From NCBI GenBank assembly GCA_001798075.1, contig MGRG01000012.1, forward strand, positions 91,852-155,851: a DNA stretch of 64,000 nt, read 5' to 3'. Below are positions 3,548-61,505 of the stretch, one piece after another (position 1 is the stretch's first letter; each line of letters opens with the position of its first letter). Source of the stretch: Deltaproteobacteria bacterium RIFCSPHIGHO2_01_FULL_43_49. GTDB lineage: Bacteria; UBA10199; SPLOWO2-01-44-7. Under the pieces are notes generated by a model that saw only the letters and a program-made list of their open reading frames with translations, was not told where the DNA came from and did not search any database. The translations under genes and the position numbers were made by a program.

Positions 3548-4705
3548 ATGAATGAAGCTGTGATTGTCGCTGCAGTACGCTCACCAATGGGAAGGGCTAA
3601 CAAAGGACAGTTTATCCACACACGCATTGATGACTTAGCAGCCGAAGTGATTCGTGCTGCACTTGCCAGAGTTCCGCAGATCAAACCGGAAATGGTTGAA
3701 GATGTTTTGATCGGTTGTGCGATGCCGGAAGGGGAGCAGGGCCTCAACGTTGCCCGCAACATCAGTTTTTTAGCCGGCATTCCTTTTGGTGCCGGCGCTG
3801 TGACGGTGAATCGTTTCTGTGCTTCCTCTTTAACAACAATCAATATGGCTGCCGATGCGGTTTTGAGTGGCGGGGCCGATATTTGTGTGACCGGCGGGAT
3901 CGAATCGATGAGTCATGTTCCGATGGGCGGGTTTAATCCAAGCCTCAATGAAAAACTTTTTGGTGATGGAAAACCGGCGGCCTACATCGGAATGGGAGAG
4001 GTCGCAGAAATTTTGGCAACAAAATATAAAATTTCTCGTGAAGAACAAGACAGATTTTCCCTCGGCTCTCATCAAAAAGCAATCAAGGCGCAAAAAGAAG
4101 GAAAATTGAAAAAAGAAATTTTGGAATGCTCTACGGTTCAAGCCGATGGTTCGATCAAAAAAGTTTTAGTCGATGAAGGTCCGAGAGAAGATACGACACT
4201 TGAAAAATTGGCACAGTTGAAGCCGGCCTTCAAGGCCAATGGTACAGTGACTGCAGGAAATTCTTCACCCCTCACCGATGGAGCGGCGTGTGTGATTGTG
4301 ATGTCGGCTGCCAAAGCAAAACAGCTTGGAATCAAACCTTTGGCGAAAATTAGGAGTTGGGCAGTGGCCGGAGTCGATCCAGCCCTCATGGGAATTGGTC
4401 CTGTGGATGCTGTGCCGAAAGCGTTAAAGAAAGCAGGGATGAAACTCTCCGATGTTGATTTGTTGGAACTCAACGAAGCTTTTGCTGTCCAGGTCTTGGC
4501 GGTATCGAGAGATTTGAATTGGGACATGACGAAACTCAATGTCCATGGGGGCGCGATTGCTTTGGGTCACCCGCTAGGGTGTAGCGGTGCTCGAATCATG
4601 GCAACCCTCCTCAATGCCTTGGAAATCTACAACAAGGCGATCGGCCTGGAGACATTGTGTGTCGGCGGCGGCCAAGGTGTGGCGACCATTGTTGAAAGAC
4701 TATAA
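3548..4705 (+). CDS. fadA: acetyl-CoA C-acyltransferase (thiolase)
   Basis: Thiolase signatures (VAAVRSPMGRANKG, NRFCASSLTTINMAADAV, C-terminal GLETLCVGGGQGVATIVE). ATG at 3548 with GGAGG 5 nt upstream; the track start at 3536 is TTG. Confidence 0.9.
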   Translation: MNEAVIVAAVRSPMGRANKGQFIHTRIDDLAAEVIRAALARVPQIKPEMVEDVLIGCAMPEGEQGLNVARNISFLAGIPFGAGAVTVNRFCASSLTTINMAADAVLSGGADICVTGGIESMSHVPMGGFNPSLNEKLFGDGKPAAYIGMGEVAEILATKYKISREEQDRFSLGSHQKAIKAQKEGKLKKEILECSTVQADGSIKKVLVDEGPREDTTLEKLAQLKPAFKANGTVTAGNSSPLTDGAACVIVMSAAKAKQLGIKPLAKIRSWAVAGVDPALMGIGPVDAVPKALKKAGMKLSDVDLLELNEAFAVQVLAVSRDLNWDMTKLNVHGGAIALGHPLGCSGARIMATLLNALEIYNKAIGLETLCVGGGQGVATIVERL

Positions 4706-11723: not shown

Positions 11724-11874
11724 AGCGAGTGGCTTGTATCTTAAACTCAAAAGGTAGTCACTACCTTTCTGTAAATTTTACCAAAAGGTAGCGTCTACCT
11801 TTTGATGATGCGCTGCAGCAATTTAATGCGGGCCACCTAGCAACATTCCTTACTTTCTGTCGATAAGGATAGTG

Positions 11875-29513: not shown

Positions 29514-29544
29514 ATACCGCACGGTACCAGGTACCTGGCGGTAT
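29514..29544. repeat. REP-like palindrome (ATACCGCACGGTACCAGGTACCTGGCGGTAT)
   Basis: Near-perfect 31-bp palindrome abutting the RAYT stop codon. Confidence 0.8.
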
Positions 29545-30383: not shown

Positions 30384-30412
30384 TACCACCAGGTACCTGG
30401 TACCTGGTGGTA
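30384..30412. repeat. REP-like palindrome (TACCACCAGGTACCTGGTACCTGGTGGTA)
   Basis: Near-perfect palindrome sharing the GGTACC(W)GGTACC core. Confidence 0.8.
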
Positions 30413-42160: not shown

Positions 42161-42211
42161 GTCGGTTCTCTAACATAACTACTTGAATTGACAAAGAATT
42201 TATTCTTGCTG

Positions 42212-42300
42212 CTTGGTGAGTGGGTGGCCCGGAGTGTTTGTTGTGGGGTTTAGTTAGGGGCCCCCACAAAAACACGGAGGGACAGGCCCTACTCACCAAG
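42212..42300 (+). repeat. palindromic structured element, copy 1
   Basis: Conserved core TGGGTGGCCCGGAGTGTTTG.TGTGGGGTTTAGTTAGGGGCCCCCACA.AAACACGGAGGG.CAGG shared with 60460-60546; outer stem CTTGGTGAGT / ACTCACCAAG is complementary. Confidence 0.65.
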
Positions 42301-42305
42301 CCAAG

Positions 42306-42335
42306 GAAGCAACATTTTTGGGGATTTGCCGATAA
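42306..42335 (+). promoter_or_regulatory. conserved 30-bp box (GAAGCAACATTTTTGGGGATTTGCCGATAA), candidate ECF-type promoter or operator
   Basis: 27 of 30 positions identical to 46416-46445; AAC at the -35-like position and CGA about 17 nt downstream. Confidence 0.35.
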
Positions 42336-44613: not shown

Positions 44614-44643
44614 ATGTATTGATGTTGCCGGCTTGGCTACCTG

Positions 44644-44775
44644 GCGATGAGGGCGCCGAAAGTACGTGATATTTTTTGGGTCGGCCCAAAAAATTCGCTC
44701 GACTCTCGCCCCGCCAGTCTTTTATCCCGATAAGGTGTGGCGGGGCTGCGAGACGACTTTCGTCCCCCTCATCGC
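44644..44775. repeat. GC-rich compound palindrome between the UDG and phospholipase-C-like genes
   Basis: 20-bp outer inverted repeat (GCGATGAGGGCGCCGAAAGT / ACTTTCGTCCCCCTCATCGC) enclosing hairpin TTTTTTGGG-TCGG-CCCAAAAAA and a second imperfect inverted repeat. Confidence 0.5.
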
Positions 44776-44809
44776 CACGCCACGCCGGCAACAGTCAATA
44801 ACGAATGAA

Positions 44810-48046: not shown

Positions 48047-50418
48047 TGACCACTATTAATTTTGGCTTTATTGAAGCAGCCATCACTGCAGCCCAGGCAG
48101 CCCAAGCGGCTTCTAATAGGGCTGAATTAGATGCCGCATTGGAAAAATTGGGGAGGGCGATCCATCCCCTGGATACCTTTGCTGATGGCAATCTATCCCC
48201 CTTGGTGGAAAGGCTGACGAGTGGTAGAAGAGCTGTCACTGAAGCAGAACTGAATCAAGTTATCAGGACTATCAACGATGCCGGGGATAAATACCGGGCA
48301 AGTTCAGGCACAAAGGAATCAAAAGCCAGCAGTGCGCACACAGGGCACGGTGTTCATGGAAGCCCCAATCCTTATCTTATTCAAGTAGGTCAGTCTAAAA
48401 CTTTTTCCCCGCGCCCTAACCAAGCCTACATCGCACGGAAAGCAGTGAGCCATTTTAGAGAAGAACACAGAGGTTTTTTTCGCCTCGATACAGGTGAGGG
48501 TAAAACACCAACATACGGATTCATCATTCAAGAACTTCGCAAAGAACTTCCCGATGAATACCAAGAGGCACTTGTTGTCATGGGTTGCCATCAAGCAGAA
48601 CCCGCTCGCAAATTGGCAGAGACGATGAAACATATGTTTCGTGATGAAAAAATCATGTTTTTAGAGGGAGGTATTGAAGCAGAAGATTTTAAAAGAGTTA
48701 CTTTTGTGGTGGGGACCTATCAACAACTAGCACAAAAATCGAGTATTGACGTTTTGAAAGAATGGGCTGGTCAAAAAAGAATTCTTTTTGTCTTGGATGA
48801 AGCGGACATGGTTGTTTTCAAAGGTATTGCAGAAGATGAACATCGAATGGCTACTTGGATTCGTCTCTTGATCGACTTTGGAGTCTTTACACAACATGGG
48901 CATTATCTTGCCAGAACACGGCATCGACTGTTGGGGGCCTCTGCAACCCTTGATCGCCCTGATGAAATTTCTCTCTCAACTGTTTGGGGTCCTGGAAATG
49001 TTTTCTATCATACACCGATGGCAGAGGGGGTTCGGCGCGGCACTCTTGTGCCCGTGGTTGGTCATGTCTTAGAAATGGATGTTCCAGAAAAAGAAAAACA
49101 TCTCTTCAGGGATTTTACGAAGATTGTGGATGGTAAGATTGTGGTTGATAAAACAAAAGTGATGTCTGCCTGCGGCAGTGATCATGCTGTTAAAACATCG
49201 GTTCGAGCTGTGATCGATCATATGAAGATGAAGATTGGTGCTGGAACGACAAAGGGTGAAGCAGTGCGGCGTGGGATCGGTTATGCCATGGACACCACTG
49301 CCTTGGAAAAACACATGCGCTGGCAGCAAGAATTATTTGGGTTGGTAGAGGTTATTTTCCAAATTTATCAAGGCTTGGCTGCATCAAAACCAATGCATGT
49401 TGATACAATCCTCGCTCATCTTGGTGGTCTGGAGAAACTAGATGCGTTTGGTCAAACTTTAAAACGGTTTCTCTATGCTAGAGAATGGAAAACGGTGGAA
49501 TCCCTTTACAGAAAGGCGGTCAGTTCTTTAAAAAATGGGAGAAAAGAAGGTATTTCGGAATTGTTCACTACTCTCTATTCTATTTTGAATGTTGATGTTC
49601 GCAGAATCAAAGGAAGACCTTTGGTGGCCACGGCTGTCTGGCAAAGTATGGACATGGATCGTGAAGGCAAAAAAATTCCTCGTGAGGCTCGTCGCACTCA
49701 ATATCTCAACAAATTTGGTGATCGGGAACTAACGATGAAGGGCTTCAATGCTGGGGTGATCGACATGCTCTGGAGCATTGGGATGTTGGACAGAGGTTTC
49801 GACGAACCGATGGCAAGCTTAATTGTTGATAATGCCCCTAGTTCATCGAGAAGAGAAGTGGTGCAAAGGGCAGGCCGTATCATGCGACCACCCGACCCCA
49901 AAAATCCTAAAGATCATAGTCAAAAACCAGAATCTATTTATATTACACTGACACCCAATTTGGAAGCCCACCATCTCGATGTGGCCAGAAAAGATTTAGC
50001 CCGAGTTTTTGGTACCGAAGTAGATCCTGAGCTCAATATCATTAAGATTCGCCCTACCAAAGAAGGGGATTTTGAGTGGCGTACTCCCGATCCTGTTCAA
50101 CTTGATTTGGGAGGTGATAAAAAAGTCCATTTAGTGTTGGTTGGGGCTAGAACCGTGGAGGCATTGGTTCATTTTTTAAAAGGACGTTATGGGAAAGATT
50201 ATGATCCCGAAATTTTGGCCTTCGATGCCGGTGTTGGGGTTGAAGAAGTTGATGATTTATTGCGGGCCATTCGTTTTCCCAAGGAATCCAGATTACGTGC
50301 CTTTTTAAAAAATTGGCGTGCCGATGATGCAACAATCCACCAAATCATGGCAATCTATCACTCCGATCTTGCCGACATGAAAACGGTCTATGGTAACGCC
50401 TGGAGGATTGTGCAATGA
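48046..50418 (+). CDS. operon gene 2: SF2 helicase / ResIII-type ATPase
   Basis: Motif I LDTGEGKT (about 48490), motif II LDEADM (about 48796), motif III SAT (about 48934), motif VI QRAGRIMRP (about 49861). Start overlaps the gene 1 stop by 1 nt. Confidence 0.75.
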   Translation: MTTINFGFIEAAITAAQAAQAASNRAELDAALEKLGRAIHPLDTFADGNLSPLVERLTSGRRAVTEAELNQVIRTINDAGDKYRASSGTKESKASSAHTGHGVHGSPNPYLIQVGQSKTFSPRPNQAYIARKAVSHFREEHRGFFRLDTGEGKTPTYGFIIQELRKELPDEYQEALVVMGCHQAEPARKLAETMKHMFRDEKIMFLEGGIEAEDFKRVTFVVGTYQQLAQKSSIDVLKEWAGQKRILFVLDEADMVVFKGIAEDEHRMATWIRLLIDFGVFTQHGHYLARTRHRLLGASATLDRPDEISLSTVWGPGNVFYHTPMAEGVRRGTLVPVVGHVLEMDVPEKEKHLFRDFTKIVDGKIVVDKTKVMSACGSDHAVKTSVRAVIDHMKMKIGAGTTKGEAVRRGIGYAMDTTALEKHMRWQQELFGLVEVIFQIYQGLAASKPMHVDTILAHLGGLEKLDAFGQTLKRFLYAREWKTVESLYRKAVSSLKNGRKEGISELFTTLYSILNVDVRRIKGRPLVATAVWQSMDMDREGKKIPREARRTQYLNKFGDRELTMKGFNAGVIDMLWSIGMLDRGFDEPMASLIVDNAPSSSRREVVQRAGRIMRPPDPKNPKDHSQKPESIYITLTPNLEAHHLDVARKDLARVFGTEVDPELNIIKIRPTKEGDFEWRTPDPVQLDLGGDKKVHLVLVGARTVEALVHFLKGRYGKDYDPEILAFDAGVGVEEVDDLLRAIRFPKESRLRAFLKNWRADDATIHQIMAIYHSDLADMKTVYGNAWRIVQ

Positions 50419-51725
50419 GTGTAAGTGTTGTCACTCCTGCAGGATATGTTACCGGCCTACTTGGTAATCTGGAGACCCTAAGTGTTGCCGGTCAAGAATC
50501 AGACATTGCAGAGGTCTTAAACGATTTATTTCCTCAAGTAGATCGTCTTGGTAATGCTGAACTTGGACAGCGTTTAAAAAAAGTAGCAACCGCGTTGCAA
50601 AATGGTGATTATAAAAGAACTCAATGGTTACAATCTTCATTATATCGTGAACTCACTGATCTTCAAGCAGCACTCCAAAGTGGTCAAGCTATTGAAGAGG
50701 CATTGCAAGCAAGACAAGCTGCTCAAGCGTTAAAAAAAATAGAAGGACCAGGCGGCGGGCGATTTACCTCTTCCATTACTGCAAGACCAGTTCAAAGAGT
50801 TTCTGTTGGACCACCACCAGTCATTGAATGGGAGAAGTTTGGATCTAGAAGGTATCCTGCACCGCTCCCCCCAAGTGAAGAGGTGAATACAGCGGGCAGA
50901 CGATTGGCTTATGTTGTCAGTTACGTTGCCGGAATGGCAGGTCATGGGGAATTCACGGCTGATACAGAAGATTTTTATAGCATCAGTTCTGAGATGCGCA
51001 GACGTATCGAAAAAGCGTTATTCGTTCCCAAAGCATTGGGCCAGTTTCCAACACGGGATGCAAGATCGATTATTATCAAAGCCCATCAATTAGAGCCGCT
51101 TTATGGAAGATTAGTTCAAGAACTTCTGATCCAATCTATTTTTGAATCACAGGGTTGGTCGTTGGGCGTTCCACTCTCCGATGCCCCGTGGGATCTCTCT
51201 TTTTTGTATGCCTTGAGACGCTATGGTGCGATGCAGTTGTTGGCCTCCGAAGAGAAAGCAAAAGAAGTGTCGGAAGACAAAGCGCTCATTCGCGTTGTGC
51301 AAGGCAAAGTCAGTTTGGAAGCGGTGAACTGGCATCCAGGCAAAACCCGTCGCGAAGTTTTTGAGCCTTGGTTACAAGGGATAGCCAGCAGAAATGGTAA
51401 CAATGAAAAACTTTTAGAGAGACAACGCAAATATATTGGCGATGGAATTTTGCGTGCAACAAATTGGCAGCCTCCTCGCAATGGCGCTGGTTGGGAGCCG
51501 CAACTCCAATGGATGGTCAGGCGCTGGATTGCCCATTTTCATTTTGGTGCTTTGCCGGCCCGGGGACTTCCATTTAAAACCGATGTGATCATTCGTTTTG
51601 CAATGGCGAAACACCCAACAAAACTAGATTTAACTTTTGCGAGAGCTTTGTTGGCCATGATGCGTGATTATTATTCAAAGGCAGAATTACAAGCCATGGG
51701 GGATTTTATACCGAGGGATAAATGA
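50415..51725 (+). CDS. operon gene 3: hypothetical protein (436 aa)
   Basis: 4-nt overlap (ATGA) with the helicase stop; no recognisable motif. Confidence 0.6.
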   Translation: MSVSVVTPAGYVTGLLGNLETLSVAGQESDIAEVLNDLFPQVDRLGNAELGQRLKKVATALQNGDYKRTQWLQSSLYRELTDLQAALQSGQAIEEALQARQAAQALKKIEGPGGGRFTSSITARPVQRVSVGPPPVIEWEKFGSRRYPAPLPPSEEVNTAGRRLAYVVSYVAGMAGHGEFTADTEDFYSISSEMRRRIEKALFVPKALGQFPTRDARSIIIKAHQLEPLYGRLVQELLIQSIFESQGWSLGVPLSDAPWDLSFLYALRRYGAMQLLASEEKAKEVSEDKALIRVVQGKVSLEAVNWHPGKTRREVFEPWLQGIASRNGNNEKLLERQRKYIGDGILRATNWQPPRNGAGWEPQLQWMVRRWIAHFHFGALPARGLPFKTDVIIRFAMAKHPTKLDLTFARALLAMMRDYYSKAELQAMGDFIPRDK

Positions 51726-54700
51726 GTATTGTTATCTCAAGGGGTTTAGCAGCACTTCAGTCTCAGATGGCAGAAGGTCTTGCCCGACTAACAGCTGACA
51801 ATGCCGCACTTTTTCAACCAGATTCTTCGTCTTCTTATGAAAACCCTGCTTTGTTAGCTGCGCAACGTTACACAAAAGAAGAACCAAGGAAAATTTCGCC
51901 CGGCATTTTCCTTCACGACATGCACGGGGCCTTGAAAAAAGTTGCCGGTTCTCGTTTCGTTGCTAAAACTCCAGAGAATGAAGACAAAGCATTTTTAAGG
52001 GCTATCGTGGGTGGTCTTTCCCTCTTTTTGGGGAAAATGGACGCGCAAAGTGAAACAGAGATTGCAGGAATGGTAGATCAAGTAATCTCGCAGATTGCAG
52101 ACCCTGCCATTCAAAAGCTTATTTTGGGTGCCGGCATTGCATTGCCAACTTCTTCCACAACGTCTGTAGCTGTTTCAGCTCCTTTAACGGTCTTGCCACC
52201 TGTTGTAGCCGCACCACAACCTCCTGCTCCAACTGTTGCTGCTCCTATCACGACAACTCTTACCCCTTTTGACTATCATCCAAACAGTGAAGAGAGGTTG
52301 GATGCTGAGTTTGAATATCGTCTCGCGAATGTTCACCAGCGCATTCAAGATGCAAATATTTCCTGGCCCTATGATTTTGTCAGATGGTGTCGCTCCCTTT
52401 ATCTTTTGGCAGGTGAGTTGCCAAATGGAGATGCAGCAAGGGTACGTGGAAATATCACCCGTGGTTTAAGAAGAATCAACGAGTTAGCCTCCATCAGTGT
52501 CGAAGATATTCGTCGCCTGTTAGGTCCTTCTGCGATGGCAGTGGGTCGTTACCCCGAAGGAATTTCGCAAGATTGGCCACGAGATATATCCAATGATTTT
52601 GGTTCTGCCATTATTGCTGTCCACGATGTCGGTGAAACTGTCATTGCCAACAAAGCAGCCCTCCTCTGGAAGGCAAGCACTGGCTTAGAAAATCAAGATG
52701 AGATTAGAGGTGATTTGGTTTCGATCCTGCGTCGTTTCGAAATAGCTTTGTTATCGGGAAGAGAAACAGATCATGAGGAAATAGAAAAAGCGCTTGATGA
52801 AATTGCGTTGAAAATTCCGGAAGCCAAACGCCCGGAAATGTTCTTAAAGAAAGAAACAGTACCACAGCCTTCACCCATCCCGTTAGAACCCATGTCGCAA
52901 GCAGAGTGGGTACAAAAAAGTTTGGATTTTTTGGTTTATGAAAAATCAAAATGGGGAAGTATGGAAGGAGAACTCTCCAATCAATTAGAGCATCTTTTTA
53001 AATTATTGAAAGTCGAAGAGGCTTTAGCACCACGTGCACCAGAGCTGTTGGGATTGGCATTTCAACTGATGTTATCTTATCGCCAGATGGTGGGGGTATC
53101 CGGAATAGAAGCTTTGGCATTGGGTAAAGATCCCAGCCTACCGATCAGTTTTGAAGACAGGGCTAAAGCCTTTGACATGATGAAGGCTGCCCACAACCAG
53201 CTCGATCTTCTTCAAGAGTGGGGTGATGCCTATAATAAAGATCCAAAAGCTTATCAACCGTTGTTCGGTGAAAATGGTCTTGCCGAAATAGTCTCTCGCT
53301 ACATCGTTCATGCTCGAGGAGGATCCCAAAACCCACTTGAAGAAGCGAGTGGAAATTTTGTTCAAGCACACCCTGAGTTGAAACTTTCAACTGCTATGGC
53401 CCGCAGGTTACTATCCTATTTTGTTGGGCTAACAGATGGAACTTTTAACGAGGCTTTCTTACAAGAAGTGTTAGGGGCCAAACCTAAGGCTCAAGAAGCG
53501 GCTGGACCAGAGCTTGATTTAGAAAATACCCCATTTTTGGATGTTGATCCAAATAAATACACTCCCTATGGGCGCGTTTTTGGAAAAGTTGTTCTGGATG
53601 GAGGAGTCATCCGAGTAGGCGGTGGCAAAAATAGACCTGGGATCTTTTTTGGGATTTATTTGACAACCTTAGAAAAGATTTACCGAAAATACCGTGAACA
53701 AGTTCGCACATCCGGTAGCAGTAGTTTCGAGTCGGCCTATACATTGGCCGTGAAGCAGGAAAAATATCAAGAAAGATATAGAAAAGACTATGAAAAATTG
53801 TTTGGGGATCTTCTTAGATTGCTGGGTGAAAATAAGGATATGGCCGATTTGGTGGAAACAGCAATTTTGTCTGGTAAGACTCAGTTAAAGGTACCTGAAA
53901 AGCAAGCAATACCTACAAGTGGCGGCCCTCCCATGGAACGACCTGTGGAAGAGGCGCCTACTGCAGCGCTAGCGCCAACACCAGCTCCAGTTTCAGTACC
54001 ACCATCGGTTGAAGTATCGAGACCAGCTGCAACAAGGGTTGATGAAGCCGTCTTTGCCGGTGCCGCACTCGTTTCACCCGATGCTCCTCCTGCCGAAGCT
54101 AACCCCTTTATCGAAGCAGCTGCAATAGTATCAGAGTTTGTTCCACCCCCAGCAGAGGTAGTTGTATCTTCAGGAGTTGCCGTAGTCGAAGTGCCACCAC
54201 CTGTTGAAACAGCGACAATTCCAGCGATCGAAGAAGAAATATTAATTGTAGATGAAGTAGAGGTAGAAACATTTCCAGCGATTCTAGCCCCCTATATTAC
54301 TAAATGGTCCCTGGGTGAAGTTGAGAAAAAAGTATTGCAAGATATGTGCGCGGTAACTTCACCAGAAGCTGTTTTGAAAGCTCTGGATAATATTGAACAA
54401 AACAGTTGGGAGAGTGAGGAGCGAAAAAGAAAGATTCTGACAGAATATGCAAGGGCTTTAGAACTTGGAAGAATAACAGAGAGAGGTAAAAAAAGAGTTG
54501 TAGAGCTTCTGGCCTCTAAGGAAAATTTTGGGAGGGTGAGACTTCTCCTATCTGTTGCCGCTGCAAAACCGACCAGTCTGGTTTTGGATCAGATTATTCC
54601 AGACCCCATTCAGTTGGGCAAAAAGGGGGGGCGATATCTAGATATTGACTTTAAATCTTACCCTCCTGTAGCTGTGGTTCGGCCTGCAATCACTCTTGCA

Positions 54701-57145
54701 GAAGGATTATACGAAGAAATAGCCGTCATGCCGAGTGGGCGTTCCGTATTGATTAGAGGACCTTTTAAAGGGGATGCCATTGATATCGGAATAGATCACG
54801 GGCAGCTCCAGAAAGGGATCGGTGGTCTTTTAGGTGAATTGGCAAGGGCTCAAGGGGCCATTGAAAGTGGCGCGCGAACCTCTCTCTTGCTCCTCGTTTT
54901 TAACGAAAATGGCATGACACCGCGTGCCCGAAAATACTTTTTTAGCCAGCACCCTCAAGGCACTTTGATTGAATGGTATGGAAACACTTTTAGTCGGTGG
55001 TCTTTAGAAAAATATGACGATGAAATTATGCTGCAGGAAACCCGTTTTGATAGAGAAGGGAATAAAATTTCTGAAAAACTTAATTCTATTGAAACATTCG
55101 AAGGAGAAGTAGAAGTTCATTTTGTTACAGCCAATGATCGCAATCCCCACACGGAACGCCTGATAGAAAAACCAACCACGCGAGCAATTGAAGATTTAAG
55201 GGCGATGGGAGAATCCAAAGAAGCGATTCGTTTGAAAGTTGTTCGGGATGCGGCCATTAACGCCGTCGGTTTTCTCAATCCCAATCACCCCGATGCAGAT
55301 AAAGTCATCGAAGTGGCTAAGAAGTTTGGTCAATCTCGTCTTAGTAAGAGACAAATTGTTGAATTGAAAGAGGAGCTGGATGCAGTTGTCATTGAAATAG
55401 AACATCGCTTTGACTCCACAATACCTCCTAAAGCTGTCGAATTGGCAGCCCTTGTGGGTGTAGAAAAATTAACTCAGTTGCTGACAATAAAAGGAATCTC
55501 TTCTGAAAATGTCGATGAATTGATCCATCACCTCTTGGTTTTAAAAACCAAGTTCAATGGAGAAGTCATTGTCAAAATAGTCGATCAATTGTTGGAAGTG
55601 AGTACAAAAAATCTCGCCCACTTTACAACACTTCTCAACCGCCTTGCTCAACTAGAAAGACTAGTAAGACAACGGGGTTTAAACATCACCGATATCACTT
55701 TAAAACCAGAAACCCTTTATGGTGGATGGGCCCTGACTTTGGATGGAAAGGTCATCTTGATCGGTTCTACTAAGGGGGAACCTTTTCATGTCCCATTCCC
55801 ATTGGGCGGGACAATGAAACAGGCTGAAGGGATTGCCGGAGCTTTAGCTCCCAATTTCGAAAGGGTAGAAGATGCGATTTTAGAAGGGAATGTGAGTGGC
55901 TTGCTTTTAATGTTGGTTGGAGAAGATGGAATTACCGAGCAAGGTAGAGACTCACTTTGGACAACCTTTGGATCCGATGCAGAAGTCTGGGTTCTCAAAA
56001 TAACCAATGATCAACAGGCCGATCATTATATCTTCAAAAAGAATAAAGAGGGCCCTTTGGCCGAATCGCTGGGAGAAGAAATTTATGAGGTGATCTCCTT
56101 TGCTCGTGAAGAAGAAGAAATTAAAATTGAAAAACTGGAACGAAAAGAAAGCCGTCAGGTCGTCAGTCCACTTTTGCTTGCAAAAAGAATTCTCGGTGTT
56201 GTGAAGCCCAAACCTTCTCCAGAGGGTGCACCAGCAAAGAAGCGTTGGGAACACATTGACGCGGATTTTGCAAAAATCTTTGCTGATCATGAGGTTACTG
56301 CACAACAAATTTGGGGACCTTTGAGCGAAATTGTGAATGATGAACGTGTTTTGAAAAAAGGAGATGCATTTATTGATTTGATGGAGTTTGCCGATCAGTT
56401 AAATGGAACCTTTGAAGCTCATTTAATGCCAATGAGTGCCTTGGCAACGGGAATTCAAATTGGAGAGCCCGTTTTTCCGGGAATAGACTTGCTCAAATGG
56501 AGAGATTTAATCGAAACTTCGACATTAGGAATCCAAGAAGCACTGTTTGATCTTAGTGACACAGAAGAAGAGGGAATCGCAAAAATCGTAAAGATTCCCC
56601 AACATCTGCATGAGTTTCATCTTTTGCTTCATCAGATTTTGATGGTTGAACTAAACGGTTATCGCAACCTCCTTAATCGGTTAGACAGTGTGAAGGCTTC
56701 AAGCGACATCCCGCCCGATTTGGCAAGACAAAAGGAATTGATTGAAACACTTCGAGGGCGTGCTGCAGATTTGGGAAAATACCTGGGGGCCGATTTCTTT
56801 AAAGAGCTCAATAAGATTCGGACCATCATGCAAAACAGAATCAATTACTTTAATGAAGTGTTGAAACCCAAGATTTTTGAATTTCAAACGAGGGATGATT
56901 TGGAGCTTCCTTCTTCGAATCCAATAACATCCGACCTCTATGCTTTTGTGGATAAATATGGTTTTAAACGGGGAAGGGAGGCAGAGCATGGAGTTCTCTT
57001 TGTAAATCCAGCTACAGGAATAACCGTAAATCTGCCCTACGACGATAAAGGTCTTGATCCACGCACGATGAAAAACTCCAGATCGGATGCTATAAAAGCT
57101 GTCGAAGAATCTTTGCGTAAAGAAGGCCGCATGCCCCCTGCTTAG
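51722..57145 (+). CDS. operon gene 4: giant hypothetical protein (1,807 aa) with Pro/Ala/Val-rich linkers and an internally duplicated ~95-aa module
   Basis: 4-nt overlap with gene 3; low-complexity linker at about 53910-54250; paired modules at about 54730-54990 and 55740-56000 share GxxxLLxLVxExGxT; no catalytic motif recognised. Confidence 0.65.
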   Translation: MSIVISRGLAALQSQMAEGLARLTADNAALFQPDSSSSYENPALLAAQRYTKEEPRKISPGIFLHDMHGALKKVAGSRFVAKTPENEDKAFLRAIVGGLSLFLGKMDAQSETEIAGMVDQVISQIADPAIQKLILGAGIALPTSSTTSVAVSAPLTVLPPVVAAPQPPAPTVAAPITTTLTPFDYHPNSEERLDAEFEYRLANVHQRIQDANISWPYDFVRWCRSLYLLAGELPNGDAARVRGNITRGLRRINELASISVEDIRRLLGPSAMAVGRYPEGISQDWPRDISNDFGSAIIAVHDVGETVIANKAALLWKASTGLENQDEIRGDLVSILRRFEIALLSGRETDHEEIEKALDEIALKIPEAKRPEMFLKKETVPQPSPIPLEPMSQAEWVQKSLDFLVYEKSKWGSMEGELSNQLEHLFKLLKVEEALAPRAPELLGLAFQLMLSYRQMVGVSGIEALALGKDPSLPISFEDRAKAFDMMKAAHNQLDLLQEWGDAYNKDPKAYQPLFGENGLAEIVSRYIVHARGGSQNPLEEASGNFVQAHPELKLSTAMARRLLSYFVGLTDGTFNEAFLQEVLGAKPKAQEAAGPELDLENTPFLDVDPNKYTPYGRVFGKVVLDGGVIRVGGGKNRPGIFFGIYLTTLEKIYRKYREQVRTSGSSSFESAYTLAVKQEKYQERYRKDYEKLFGDLLRLLGENKDMADLVETAILSGKTQLKVPEKQAIPTSGGPPMERPVEEAPTAALAPTPAPVSVPPSVEVSRPAATRVDEAVFAGAALVSPDAPPAEANPFIEAAAIVSEFVPPPAEVVVSSGVAVVEVPPPVETATIPAIEEEILIVDEVEVETFPAILAPYITKWSLGEVEKKVLQDMCAVTSPEAVLKALDNIEQNSWESEERKRKILTEYARALELGRITERGKKRVVELLASKENFGRVRLLLSVAAAKPTSLVLDQIIPDPIQLGKKGGRYLDIDFKSYPPVAVVRPAITLAEGLYEEIAVMPSGRSVLIRGPFKGDAIDIGIDHGQLQKGIGGLLGELARAQGAIESGARTSLLLLVFNENGMTPRARKYFFSQHPQGTLIEWYGNTFSRWSLEKYDDEIMLQETRFDREGNKISEKLNSIETFEGEVEVHFVTANDRNPHTERLIEKPTTRAIEDLRAMGESKEAIRLKVVRDAAINAVGFLNPNHPDADKVIEVAKKFGQSRLSKRQIVELKEELDAVVIEIEHRFDSTIPPKAVELAALVGVEKLTQLLTIKGISSENVDELIHHLLVLKTKFNGEVIVKIVDQLLEVSTKNLAHFTTLLNRLAQLERLVRQRGLNITDITLKPETLYGGWALTLDGKVILIGSTKGEPFHVPFPLGGTMKQAEGIAGALAPNFERVEDAILEGNVSGLLLMLVGEDGITEQGRDSLWTTFGSDAEVWVLKITNDQQADHYIFKKNKEGPLAESLGEEIYEVISFAREEEEIKIEKLERKESRQVVSPLLLAKRILGVVKPKPSPEGAPAKKRWEHIDADFAKIFADHEVTAQQIWGPLSEIVNDERVLKKGDAFIDLMEFADQLNGTFEAHLMPMSALATGIQIGEPVFPGIDLLKWRDLIETSTLGIQEALFDLSDTEEEGIAKIVKIPQHLHEFHLLLHQILMVELNGYRNLLNRLDSVKASSDIPPDLARQKELIETLRGRAADLGKYLGADFFKELNKIRTIMQNRINYFNEVLKPKIFEFQTRDDLELPSSNPITSDLYAFVDKYGFKRGREAEHGVLFVNPATGITVNLPYDDKGLDPRTMKNSRSDAIKAVEESLRKEGRMPPA

Positions 57146-57573
57146 GCCTTTTCCCTTTTGGCGAGGTAGTCCAACACAGATTTGGCAAAGAGTTCGAAGT
57201 CGCTTAGATGTTGCTTAAGAACGCTATAAATTTCTTTGTCATCCGTTTCCCAATAAAGATGCACCAAGCGGTTTCTCATTTTTGCCATTTTTCGCAATTT
57301 TGTGAGAAAGCCCTCGGTGACCACTCCATTTTCCACGAGTACTTTAAAGCTGTCGGCATAGTCCTTTGGCGCTCTAAAGCCAAATCTGGAGATGAGATGG
57401 TTTGTCAAATCAAGACATGTCTCTAAAGCATATTGGAGATTGAGGCGAGCGCTGTCTTTTTTCATCGCATCTTTTAGGAAATCAGCCTCAGAAAATGCGC
57501 CGAGTTCTTTCAACTTTAAAACATATTGACGAAGCCGATCTACGAGCATTGTTACTTTTTTTATATCAACCAT
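57142..57573 (-). CDS. hepT: HepT-like (DUF86) toxin
   Basis: Rx4HxY motif (RNRLVHLY) near the C-terminus; overlaps the upstream MNT gene by 8 nt. Confidence 0.8.
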   Translation of the reverse strand: MVDIKKVTMLVDRLRQYVLKLKELGAFSEADFLKDAMKKDSARLNLQYALETCLDLTNHLISRFGFRAPKDYADSFKVLVENGVVTEGFLTKLRKMAKMRNRLVHLYWETDDKEIYSVLKQHLSDFELFAKSVLDYLAKREKA

Positions 57574-58015
57574 GCGTCAACCCTTGTTCGCGAATCGTTC
57601 GCAAACGTTCCGAGCAATAGTTATCGATAAAAAATTTGAAATCAAAATAATGTTTGCGTGTTCGCTCTTCATAATTTGCTCGTATAGTATCCGAAATTGC
57701 GTAGAGTAATTTGCCGTCTGTGATTACTTTTCCTTGAAAATCAAGAGGGGCATCATTGATAATTCGAACATCAAACTCAAACGTTGGAAAGGAACCTTCC
57801 AAAAGGTCTTCGATCTCAATTTCAAAATCCCATCGATTCTTTCCAAAGTGTTTTGTATTAATAACCAAAGCAATATCGACATCACTAAGGGGCGTGGAGT
57901 TGCCTGTTGCGTAGGAACCATGCAAATAAACAAGTTCCAAAAAGGAATTTTTTTTTGCTAATTCTCGGAAGGCCCTCCCCAAATTTTCTTTATCCTGAGG
58001 TTTCATGACACTCAT
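57566..58015 (-). CDS. mntA: MNT-type nucleotidyltransferase antitoxin
   Basis: Nucleotidyltransferase motif LHGSYATGNSTPLSDVDIALV immediately upstream of hepT. Confidence 0.8.
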   Translation of the reverse strand: MSVMKPQDKENLGRAFRELAKKNSFLELVYLHGSYATGNSTPLSDVDIALVINTKHFGKNRWDFEIEIEDLLEGSFPTFEFDVRIINDAPLDFQGKVITDGKLLYAISDTIRANYEERTRKHYFDFKFFIDNYCSERLRTIREQGLTHG

Positions 58016-59274: not shown

Positions 59275-59757
59275 TTATTTTAATTTCGATTTTAGAAGTT
59301 TTTCCACTTGTGGGTGGATCATCCCTTTGCAAGAGCCTCCAAACGTTAAAATCTCTCGTATAAATGTTGAGCTCAGATGGGAATATTTTCCCTCTGTCAT
59401 CATAAAAATGGTTTCCAGTGAAGGGTAGAGGGCTTTGTTGACCAATGCCATTTGCGATTCATATTCATAGTCACTCATGTTGCGAATACCTCTCAGTAGT
59501 GTGCGAACTTTTCTTTGTTTTGCAAAATCGACCAACAAACCGTTAAAAGAAACAACTTCAATTTTATCTTTATAAGCTTTAAGAAGTTTTGCCAATAAGT
59601 CCACACGTTCTTTAACATTTAGGATTGGTTTTTTGGAGGTATTGGTTGCAACAGCAACAACGAGTTTGTCAAAAATTTTCAAACCCCGCTCAATGATATT
59701 GAGATGTCCCATCGTGGGAGGATCAAATGACCCGGCACAAATTGCAATTTTATCCAT
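59275..59757 (-). CDS. coaD: phosphopantetheine adenylyltransferase
   Basis: N-terminal ICAGSFDPPTMGHLNIIERG (T/HxGH motif). Confidence 0.9.
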   Translation of the reverse strand: MDKIAICAGSFDPPTMGHLNIIERGLKIFDKLVVAVATNTSKKPILNVKERVDLLAKLLKAYKDKIEVVSFNGLLVDFAKQRKVRTLLRGIRNMSDYEYESQMALVNKALYPSLETIFMMTEGKYSHLSSTFIREILTFGGSCKGMIHPQVEKLLKSKLK

Positions 59758-59759
59758 GA

Positions 59760-60305
59760 TTATCCTCTCTTCAAAAAACTGACCAAGGTTTGTCCATATT
59801 TTCTTTCGTCCGTCAAGCGCAAGCCCTCTATTGCTCCAATTGGTTCCTTGGGATGGTGCTCTACTATAATAATTGTTTCATCGTGCAGAAGAAAGCTATT
59901 TGCCAGTTTGTTTAATGTTTTTTTGACGAAACGTTTTTCATAAGGGGGGTCGACAAAGATAAGATCGAATTTTTTTTGTTTTTTAGAAAGAATAGCGATT
60001 GTCTTTGCCGCCGACAGGTAAAAGACATTGGCTCTATCGGCAAAGCCACATAGATCAATATTTTTGCCGATCAATTTTAAAGACTCTTTGGAATCATCCG
60101 CAAAAACAGCTTCTTTAGCCCCTCGGCTTAAAGCCTCAATCCCCATAGAACCGGTCCCTGCAAAAAGATCCAAAACAGTCCAATCGGTGACATCAAAAAG
60201 GATATTGAAAACCGCCTCTTTGACCTGATCGAGTACGGGCCTGATGAGATTGGATTTAGGGCTGGCAAGTCGCCTCCCTTTGGCTTCACCTGCAATCACA
60301 CGCAT
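59760..60305 (-). CDS. rsmD: 16S rRNA (guanine966-N2)-methyltransferase
   Basis: SAM-binding LDLFAGTGSMGIEALSRGA and DPPY motif. Confidence 0.85.
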   Translation of the reverse strand: MRVIAGEAKGRRLASPKSNLIRPVLDQVKEAVFNILFDVTDWTVLDLFAGTGSMGIEALSRGAKEAVFADDSKESLKLIGKNIDLCGFADRANVFYLSAAKTIAILSKKQKKFDLIFVDPPYEKRFVKKTLNKLANSFLLHDETIIIVEHHPKEPIGAIEGLRLTDERKYGQTLVSFLKRG

Positions 60306-60322
60306 TTATTTACCTCCGTTTT

Positions 60323-60411
60323 GTTGAAAATGACGGGCTCCGGGTCGGCTTGCTGCACGCCCTCCCGACAGATCGGGCTGACAGCTGCGCCGACCACCCG
60401 TCATTTTCAAC
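60323..60411. repeat. GC-rich palindromic element in the rsmD leader region
   Basis: Perfect 14-bp inverted repeat GTTGAAAATGACGG / CCGTCATTTTCAAC separated by a GC-rich 61 bp with internal complementarity; lies 18 nt upstream of the rsmD start, adjacent to its GGAGG RBS. Confidence 0.55.
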
Positions 60412-60459
60412 TTCACATTTTTCGGAGCACCTATGCGAAAACACCCTATCTTAATGATT

Positions 60460-60546
60460 GGAGTGAATGGGTGGCCCGGAGTGTTTGCTGTGGGGTTTAG
60501 TTAGGGGCCCCCACAGAAACACGGAGGGGCAGGACCCGTTCACTCC
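60460..60546 (+). repeat. palindromic structured element, copy 2
   Basis: Same core as 42212-42300 with a different but still complementary outer stem (GGAGTGAA / TTCACTCC). Confidence 0.65.
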
Positions 60547-60651
60547 ACTCAATATTATTAAGGTGTTTTCGCAAAGGTCGGAGAAGTCTATGCATAGAAC
60601 TTGCATTAATTCAAAAGACAAGCTATGGCGAGCGAATAATAAGGAGGATTC

Positions 60652-61470
60652 ATGAAACGCAAATTTTGGCATTGGGCTTTTTTATTAGCTTTGACCCTGT
60701 CACCCGTTCTGGCAGAGGCTGCCAAGACAACCTATGTCTACACCGACAGACGCTTTCATTTCGTGAAGCGTGTTGAGATGGACAAAGAGGAACTCAAAGA
60801 ACGTCAAGTGAACCATCCTTACACCTTCACCGATTTGCAGCTCAGAGATATGTTGGCAGGTGTTAAATTTAGCAGACAGCTTGTTTTCAAAAAAGAGGTT
60901 CAAGAAGATGCTGTTTTCAACCAGGCAAATTTGGATTTTTTAGTGCCACACCTTGTTCAGGCTTTTAAAGAATCGCAACCCAACGAAGAAATTGTTTTTG
61001 CTTTTATCACTCATCGATCAAAGTTTGTTGTGAGAGACGACCAGCTAACGATTGTGCGTTCGTGGGTGGAAGGGAATCAGCTTCATATGGAATTTCGCAA
61101 GCTGATGGCCAAGGTTGATGTGACGAACTACGACAAGTTGGGCGATGTGAATCAGGCGATGAATCGGGCGCAAGGCTTGCGCGTTGCTTTGGAATTAACA
61201 CCGGGTCAGCAGTATGGCAGAAGCACCGATGAGGTTTTGTTGACCATTCCTTCTGCTTCTGCTGTGGCGAGTGCTCTTGAAAAACCAAAAGAAGAAAAGG
61301 CCAAAGAAGAGAAGAAAACGGCCAAGGTTGAGAAAAGGACGACAGTTTCTGAGCCGGTTAGTGGTTCTGCTGCCGATCGGTTGAAACAACTAGATCAACT
61401 CAAAAAACAGGGGCTTATTAGTAAGGAAGAATACCAACAAAAGCGCCAGGAAATCTTGAATCAGCTGTAG
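60652..61470 (+). CDS. secreted hypothetical protein with SHOCT-like C-terminus
   Basis: Signal peptide (LALTLSPVLAEA); C-terminal LDQLKKQGLISKEEYQQKRQEIL is SHOCT-like; AAGGAGG RBS. Confidence 0.55.
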   Translation: MKRKFWHWAFLLALTLSPVLAEAAKTTYVYTDRRFHFVKRVEMDKEELKERQVNHPYTFTDLQLRDMLAGVKFSRQLVFKKEVQEDAVFNQANLDFLVPHLVQAFKESQPNEEIVFAFITHRSKFVVRDDQLTIVRSWVEGNQLHMEFRKLMAKVDVTNYDKLGDVNQAMNRAQGLRVALELTPGQQYGRSTDEVLLTIPSASAVASALEKPKEEKAKEEKKTAKVEKRTTVSEPVSGSAADRLKQLDQLKKQGLISKEEYQQKRQEILNQL

Positions 61471-61483
61471 GCGAAAAAAATAG

Positions 61484-61505
61484 CGGGTCCTGCCCCTCCG
61501 TGTTT
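61484..61505 (-). repeat. inverted partial copy of the palindromic element core
   Basis: CGGGTCCTGCCCCTCCGTGTTT is the reverse complement of the 3' part of copy 2 (AAACACGGAGGGGCAGGACCCG) and is followed by a T-run, just after the SHOCT gene stop. Confidence 0.6.

Follow-up and report, generated by a model that had tools for sequence, protein, structure and literature searches.

Within the window (the whole 64-kb stretch of DNA that was analysed), rsmD lies on the minus strand as the first gene of rsmD-coaD-aminotransferase and is divergent from a gene for a signal-peptide-like protein with a weak SHOCT domain (hereafter the SHOCT gene); two long hairpins, H1 and H2, lie between them (Table 1). 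The original prediction had named the three minus-strand genes correctly: their products match RsmD (PF03602), a CoaD-like protein (PF01467) and a class I/II aminotransferase. The window belongs to scaffold_16 of a Rifle groundwater assembly (Anantharaman 2016), and the names under which proteins identical to those of the window have been deposited are Deltaproteobacteria bacterium RIFCSPLOWO2_01_44_7 and RIFCSPHIGHO2_01_FULL_43_49. An identical RsmD is found in four NCBI MAGs (OGQ04425, OGQ14675, OGQ28061 and OGQ31273). Immediately downstream of the aminotransferase gene, at 57142-58015, is a toxin-antitoxin-type pair made up of a PF01909 nucleotidyltransferase and a PF01934 HepT-like protein, which is also present in one of the related loci described below (L004). 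At window ~50415-57145 (L001 13161-19891), ORFs of 1807 and 436 aa with no Pfam match lie beside a ResIII/DEAD helicase gene and may form a defence or restriction-like island with it.

Table 1. Window coordinates of the rsmD-SHOCT intergenic features and of the H2-type copies and derivatives found elsewhere in the window
Feature	Position	Strand	Basis
Minimal derivative, core deleted, 4 nt past a stop codon	41024..41062	+	
Second H2-type copy, compensatory stem differences	42204..42310	+	
rsmD, 16S rRNA m2G966 methyltransferase family (PF03602), first gene of rsmD-coaD-aminotransferase	59760..60305	-	
GCAT, left 4-bp direct repeat (current rsmD ATG + C on the minus strand)	60302..60305	.	
Lineage-specific insertion: left tail, H1, spacer, H2 composite, tail CGGAGAAGTCTAT	60306..60591	.	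gap in alignment A3 and empty site in L053
17-nt left tail with the rsmD Shine-Dalgarno GGAGG (60317-60313)	60306..60322	-	
H1, 89-nt hairpin repeat	60323..60411	- (assigned)	inverted repeat, folds, copies elsewhere
H1 left arm, GTTGAAAATGACGGG	60323..60337	.	perfect 15-bp inverted-repeat search
H1 right arm, CCCGTCATTTTCAAC	60397..60411	.	perfect 15-bp inverted-repeat search
17-nt H1-H2 spacer, minus strand GCUCCGAAAAAUGUGAA	60412..60428	.	
H2, 150-nt composite hairpin; conserved 70-nt core at 60469-60537; shell CCTATGCGAAAA.../...TTTTCGCAAAGG; TCGGAG on both flanks	60429..60578	+	
GCAT, right 4-bp direct repeat (relic of the ancestral ATGC on the minus strand)	60592..60595	.	
Ancestral rsmD-proximal motif TTGAATTAATGCAAG, extended -10-like, putative promoter	60600..60614	-	
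Gene for a 272-aa signal-peptide-like protein, weak SHOCT domain, divergent from rsmD, syntenic in relatives	60652..61470	+	
Half element (H2-type, 3' half), immediately past the SHOCT-gene stop codon	61471..61510	-	

H1 and H2 as hairpins

H1 had been predicted from the sequence as a perfect 14-bp inverted repeat with a 61-bp spacer, ending 18 nt before the rsmD start. The perfect inverted repeat is there, with arms (100% complementary) of 15 bp rather than 14 and 59 nt rather than 61 between them, and it does end close to the rsmD start, at a distance of 17 nt from the ATG (60305-60303, minus strand). The adjoining GGAGG ribosome-binding site lies 7 nt before the ATG and 5 nt from H1. The outer shell of H1 (GTTGAAAATGACGG/CCGTCATTTTCAAC) surrounds a core that is GC-rich, as proposed (GC 0.55-0.60 vs 0.443 for the window), and the proposed internal complementarity of this core is borne out by folding, in which stretches of 89-115 nt form a single long hairpin. 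Folding of the minus strand, one of the checks suggested at the outset, gave -58.3 kcal/mol (z -7.39) and folding of the plus strand -51.3 kcal/mol (z -5.79), with 0/200 shuffles as good in either case. The 64-kb window contains no other perfect inverted repeat whose arms reach 15 bp and whose spacer does not exceed 100 nt, and no further copies of the H1 arms were found within it above chance.

H2 lies 17 nt from H1 in the opposite orientation, each of the two being directed towards its own neighbouring gene. Its folding energy is -85.9 kcal/mol (z -8.1) for the plus strand and -83.0 kcal/mol (z -10.4) for the minus strand, and its centre is repeated at 42204-42296 with 86% identity. The TCGGAG seen on both sides of H2 has counterparts in similar flanks (TTCGGAG/TTCGAAG ... 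CGGAGAAG) of ~7 other composite copies, and these flanks may belong to the element rather than represent a target-site duplication.

Hairpins of this family do break assemblies. A contig from another Rifle sample (L009 1-162, equivalent to window 60490-60651) ends at the H2 apex and shows one loop difference, GTTAG to GTGAG. Such breaks, the L009 end among them, would be the one reason to regard H1 as an assembly artefact, but homologous copies occur in independent JGI assemblies; a chance palindrome is at odds with first-order Markov simulations, which give 0.01 such inverted repeats per window. We consider chance or artefact to be a negligible explanation.

An insertion block at the rsmD start codon

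Starting from RsmD homologues, we compiled seven related loci (L002, L004, L007, L005/L006, L053, L054 and L055). Conservation of the element upstream of rsmD had been put forward as a check, and the outcome was negative: H1 is present in 0/7 relatives, the closest (L053, RsmD 74% identical) included, and H2 is likewise missing from all seven. Three of them preserve the gene order exactly, with the SHOCT gene divergent from rsmD-coaD-aminotransferase, and the intergenic region there is 58 bp (L002), 124 bp (L004) or 42 bp (L007) long vs 346 bp in the window; related loci with greA upstream have an intergenic region of 55 bp. When these regions were aligned (alignment A3), window positions 60579-60651 matched the entire intergenic region of the relatives, plus one gap of ~290 nt, and the block comprising both hairpins appeared as one gap against L002, L004 and L007.

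The closest relative provides an empty site. In L053 the sequence is TCTTTTGAATTAATGCAAG-TCCC-ATGCGCGTC (also written TCTTTTGAATTAATGCAAGTCCC-ATGCGCGTC), with the rsmD ATG 4 nt past the motif, while the filled site on the minus strand of the window reads TCTTTTGAATTAATGCAAG-TTCT-ATGC (= TCTTTTGAATTAATGCAAGTTCT-ATGC), then 286 nt (60591 down to 60306) and then ATGCGTGTG. Comparison of the two sites shows that the window has gained an inserted block of 286 bp immediately past the ancestral ATGC, with 4-bp GCAT repeats on either side, 286 bp being the size of the insertion block in this window and not that of a repeat unit. The tail at the far end of the block agrees with the 3' end that is canonical among the other H2-type composites. 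The GCAT duplication flanks the whole block and is only 4 bp long, and start-codon selection could have favoured GCAT; no clear target-site duplication directly flanks H1. We looked for the Shine-Dalgarno tail and the 17-nt spacer beside other copies of the repeat and found neither.

One of the relatives, L004, has a palindrome of its own in the orthologous SHOCT-rsmD intergenic region (~60 nt at 3890-3950, TTCGTATCTCGTGAAGCG / CGCTTCACGAGATACGAA), unrelated to H1 and H2, and this spot seems to accept hairpin insertions repeatedly.

The insertion may also bear on how rsmD is expressed. A conserved motif, TTGAATTAA(A/T)(T/G)CAAG, lies 4-5 nt before the rsmD ATG in the relatives and ~290 nt upstream of it in the window, and its position in the relatives suggests that the window's version (60614-60600) may be the rsmD promoter. 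No Shine-Dalgarno sequence was found before rsmD in the relatives, and a -10-like TTAAAT is located 9-10 nt before their ATG, which together suggest that their rsmD mRNA is leaderless or near-leaderless. In the window, on the other hand, the rsmD ribosome-binding site falls within the inserted block. If the motif is indeed the promoter, rsmD would plausibly be transcribed with a leader of ~290 nt that is predicted to fold into the minus-strand forms of H2 and H1, and in which CUCCG of the spacer (60427-60423) would pair with CGGAG of the ribosome-binding site in a 5-bp helix. A consensus scan of 60200-60750 returned no promoter-like or terminator-like site. The relic rsmD start codon (60595-60593, minus strand) opens a 32-codon ORF that runs into H2 (MHRLLRPLRKH...). 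If the mRNA has stayed leaderless at this position, this might serve as a translated upstream ORF.

The original prediction had interpreted H1 as a 5'-leader regulatory structure for rsmD-coaD-aminotransferase. One half of this interpretation, the placement in a leader, stands as plausible with a promoter-like motif upstream, while the regulatory function is not supported. A dedicated cis-regulatory leader (riboswitch, attenuator, thermometer or protein-binding element) that evolved for this gene series would fit the closeness of H1 to the GGAGG (5 nt) and the ATG (17 nt), the very high stability of the hairpin, the predicted CUCCG-CGGAG pairing at the ribosome-binding site, and the upstream motif from which H1 may be transcribed. 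It does not fit the absence of H1 upstream of rsmD in the seven relatives, nor the outcome of the Rfam scan that had been suggested as a further check, in which Rfam 15 gave nothing relevant either for 59500-61500 at the permissive threshold of E<=1 or for the whole window at gathering score. Rfam searches of four related loci gave nothing relevant either. H1 as a small SRP RNA and H2 as a 6S-like RNA, both considered from shape, were rejected when no covariance model matched. The copies described in the next section weigh further against a dedicated leader.

Dispersed copies and a modular superfamily

Metagenomes were scanned with a 21-base pattern from the H2 core, and relatives of H1 were then sought by blastn and nhmmer in the DNA retrieved. 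The pattern yielded 46 exact matches at 43 metagenome loci, with three contigs of 366-484 kb carrying 8-11 matches each, and the unique copies of the family number 45-50. Two further full-length copies of H1 were found, one (L023 159-248) 90% identical and located 3' of a DNA methyltransferase gene, the other (L033 4978-5065) 86.5% identical and located between a 537-aa gene and a prpB-like gene. Moreover, L018 1381-1445 is a hybrid in which an H1 apex sits on an H2-type base (GGGTGGCCCGGAG.../...GGGGCAGGACCC), so that the H1 type comprises three full copies, the window's included, and one hybrid. The reverse combination is also seen: an H2-type core lies within the H1 shell (GTTGAAAATGACGG/CCGTCATTTTCAAC) at L024 9024-9154, and in L017 an H1 arm/shell flanks an H2-type core. 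When H1 was scored with a covariance model built from 48 H2-type copies, its minus strand reached 20.4 bits vs 13.7 for the plus strand. These chimeras and scores place H1 and H2 in one modular superfamily, in which the minus strand of H1 is equivalent to the plus strand of H2.

The differences between H1 copies preserve the hairpin. Between the window and L023, ATGACGGG/CCCGUCAU is replaced by AUGGUGGG/CCCGCUAU, which amounts to one A-U to G-C swap and two G-U pairs, and the minus strand folds better in all three H1 copies because the G-U pairs form on the minus strand only. We found no orthologous region shared by the window and the copy-bearing metagenome contigs, and therefore copies within the same genome are established for H2 (three in the window) and not for H1. 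A scan of GTDB species genomes for the exact apical 20-mer of H1 gave only a chance match with unrelated flanks, in a Longimicrobiales genome; the scan is blind to the other H1 copies, since these differ from the window by one base within the 20-mer.

With 86-90% identical copies at unrelated loci, including one on the 3' side of a gene, and with H1 modules that recombine with a family of >45 copies, the comparative data largely refute the reading of H1 as a dedicated leader, which we now regard as very unlikely. That H1, alone or with H2, is an independent small RNA gene located between rsmD and the SHOCT gene appears to us extremely improbable. Very low folding energies on both strands, an intergenic position and a GC content above background are what such a gene might show, but no promoter-like or terminator-like signals were found in 60200-60750, no Rfam family matches (SRP and 6S RNA included), the hairpins are absent in the relatives, and a multi-copy, modular element with truncated and internally deleted derivatives behaves as repeat DNA does.

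Across the family, an apex of ~70 nt is nearly invariant, and the basal stems vary among copies yet remain complementary. RNAalifold called 34 pairs, with changes on both sides in 13/34, and the family covariation score was 0.285 vs <=0.10 in controls. Paired cells amounted to 96.4% vs 86.5% in shuffles, and double-changed cells to 199 vs 68, values that 0/500 shuffles reached in either measure; shifting the 3' partner by 1-3 columns made pairing collapse to 39-61%. The alignments thus point to a hairpin that is kept through compensatory changes in the family. Strong covariation by itself does not identify a regulatory RNA. The apex carries two GGAG internal-loop motifs on the same strand. As CGGAG recurs at module junctions, nested insertion at CGGAG targets was considered; it was not adopted, since the 'minimal' copies differ in their deletion end-points and look like apex deletions, not empty sites, and since the two internal GGAG motifs can equally be seen as one symmetric internal loop.

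Family members are placed mostly between genes. Among 45 copies, a crude ORF-based caller put 19 in co-directional regions, 10 in convergent and 7 in divergent ones, 7 inside an ORF and 2 at the end of a locus, and none of the copies lies in a confident gene. In co-directional regions, 14/18 copies are closer to the stop codon of the upstream gene, in many cases at a distance of 10-40 nt; several copies exactly fill convergent gaps; and many show an A-tract, stem, T-tract layout (GAAAAAGTAGT...ACTACTTTTTC). In their GC-rich stems with an A-tract and a T-tract, and in the location of many members 10-40 nt past stops or between convergent genes, they are similar to intrinsic bidirectional terminators. 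At the same time, hairpins of 90-150 nt far exceed ordinary terminators, and H1 in particular differs from them: its only run of U's (U4) falls within the stem, with CAAC / AAAACGG after it, and no U-tract follows the stem-loop; it is situated in a divergent promoter region, right next to a ribosome-binding site; and the scan called nothing there as terminator-like.

REP-type repeats attenuate transcription and stabilise mRNA. The family could be a domesticated module (such as an intrinsic terminator, perhaps bidirectional, or a hairpin that stabilises transcript 3' ends or binds protein), with H1 serving rsmD as an insulator, attenuator or 5' stabiliser; this reading overlaps the repeat reading, adding a function to the same element. 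The nearly invariant apex on covarying stems, the tract layout of many copies, their proximity to upstream stops and the filling of convergent gaps all agree with it. However, H1, H2 and the 42.2-kb copy are in divergent promoter regions with nothing there to terminate, H1 has only four T's and the terminator scan was empty, copies point both ways relative to the upstream gene (11 antisense, 3 sense), and proximity to stop codons can also be explained by where insertions are tolerated. On balance we find a domesticated role unlikely, if worth keeping in view.

Several other palindromic sequences came up in these searches. A 171-nt branched palindrome at 44623-44793, with nested inverted repeats and two internal hairpins, occupies a divergent intergenic region and has no Rfam match at gathering score; it has at least 7 relatives at 65-72% identity in L039, L038, L043, L052 and L013/L037 and constitutes a separate repeat family. 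At 11747-11805 there is a 59-nt palindromic doublet based on CCAAAAGGTAG...CTACCTTTTGG, a motif also present in L032, L023, L052, L024 and L030, often beside H2-type copies. Another short palindromic family is represented at 30384-30412 and 29514-29543 by a perfect 14-bp palindrome (TACCACCAGGTACC/GGTACCTGGTGGTA) that is repeated in L024, L051, L049 and L022. In L019, L049, L050 and L025, a nearly identical block of ~250 nt with palindromic ends (GGGCAGGAGTGGGGTGTTCAAAAC / GTTTTTCACACCCCACTCCTGCCC) lies directly upstream of H2 composites (e.g. L050 ~3900-4200), and Rfam gave no match in L050.

Relation to known repeats and origin of the block

No transposase, parent element or autonomous IS with matching ends was found in the sampled loci. 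A regular expression for HUH motifs (DH[VILFM]H-type) had no match in six frames of ~490 kb, and Pfam searches of ten ORFs flanked by repeats returned housekeeping families only. Viral and phage contigs scanned with H1 and H2 patterns gave nothing, as did a blastn search of plasmids with the whole intergenic region. An integron attC site was rejected as an identity for the hairpin: attC sites have a defined order of their R''/R' ends, and the GTT...AAC ends seen here are reversed in order with respect to it.

Like REPs and REPINs, the family consists of short, non-coding, extragenic, multi-copy sequences that form long hairpins in single-stranded DNA or RNA and occur singly or clustered in alternating orientation, as H1 and H2 do here. 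REP/REPIN elements are mobilised by RAYT transposases (Bertels & Rainey 2011, PMC3116915; PMC3337134), and REPIN hairpins often carry compensatory changes in their two halves (PMC3116915). Of the features that define them, many extragenic copies (for the superfamily) and a compensatory hairpin are found here, and conserved inverted REP ends are not. In REPINs the ends (the REP 16-mers) are conserved and the spacer or apex is variable, whereas in this family variation is found in the basal stems and hardly at all in the apex. The family is without a GTAG-type REP head; REPINs are tied to a RAYT gene, whereas the ~490 kb sampled here contained no RAYT/HUH gene; and, unlike REPINs, the family has nested modules whose shells, bases and apices can be exchanged.

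Bacterial MITEs and modular intergenic repeats include the Correia, ERIC/IRU, pneumococcal BOX and RUP, and Rickettsia palindromic elements. By description, the family resembles them in its units of 90-150 bp with terminal inverted repeats and a stable fold, and in insertion beside or into gene starts, where such elements can donate or displace promoters and ribosome-binding sites; again by description, it shares interchangeable modules with BOX. The terminal inverted repeats of H1 are its perfect 15-bp arms, which are conserved in L023, L033 and L024. The family differs from MITEs in the lack of a clear target-site duplication at H1 and in that no parent IS sharing its ends was seen, the only duplications being the 4 bp around the whole block and TCGGAG around H2. 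Given the mismatches with REPINs, MITEs and Rfam, we file these sequences as a new family of dispersed intergenic palindromic repeats and not as a REPIN, a named MITE or an RNA family.

Taken as a whole, the evidence makes it likely that H1 is a copy of a lineage-specific REP/REPIN- or MITE-like repeat that came to lie before rsmD together with H2 in the 286-bp block, and that it is not a purpose-built regulator. In the history that we propose, the block carrying H1 and H2 would have inserted immediately past the ancestral rsmD ATGC with a 4-bp duplication, moving the ancestral promoter-like motif ~290 bp away from the coding sequence and leaving a relic start codon behind. The gene would now begin at the duplicated ATG, behind the GGAGG inside the inserted block, and H1 would probably be part of a new, long and strongly folded rsmD 5' UTR as a by-product of repeat insertion, in which case it may also affect rsmD expression. 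As to how the repeats spread, our guess is that single-stranded hairpin DNA is handled by a transposase or recombinase encoded elsewhere. The strong covariation and the nearly invariant 70-nt apex could reflect a selected function, and not merely a selfish repeat.

Repeat insertion is an ordinary kind of event; what is unusual is the modular architecture, in a family that is undescribed. The comparison removes a false lead, since H1 is no conserved riboswitch or attenuator of rsmD. It also documents, in an uncultivated groundwater bacterium, a superfamily of nested palindromic repeats restricted to its lineage, together with a clean empty- versus filled-site case in which a repeat block has landed precisely at a start codon. 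Annotation and the search for RNA motifs can be misled by insertions of this kind, which also break assemblies at the apices of the hairpins. More speculatively, and in our view doubtful, the family could be an undescribed modular 'Russian-doll' hairpin system, with a nearly invariant 70-nt apex on covarying basal stems, that owes its persistence either to a hairpin-specific single-stranded DNA transposase or recombinase or to selection for a role as an RNA module that binds protein or acts like a terminator. If this were true, the system could rewire gene starts, as in the change of rsmD from a leaderless-type gene to a Shine-Dalgarno-led one behind a 290-nt folded leader.
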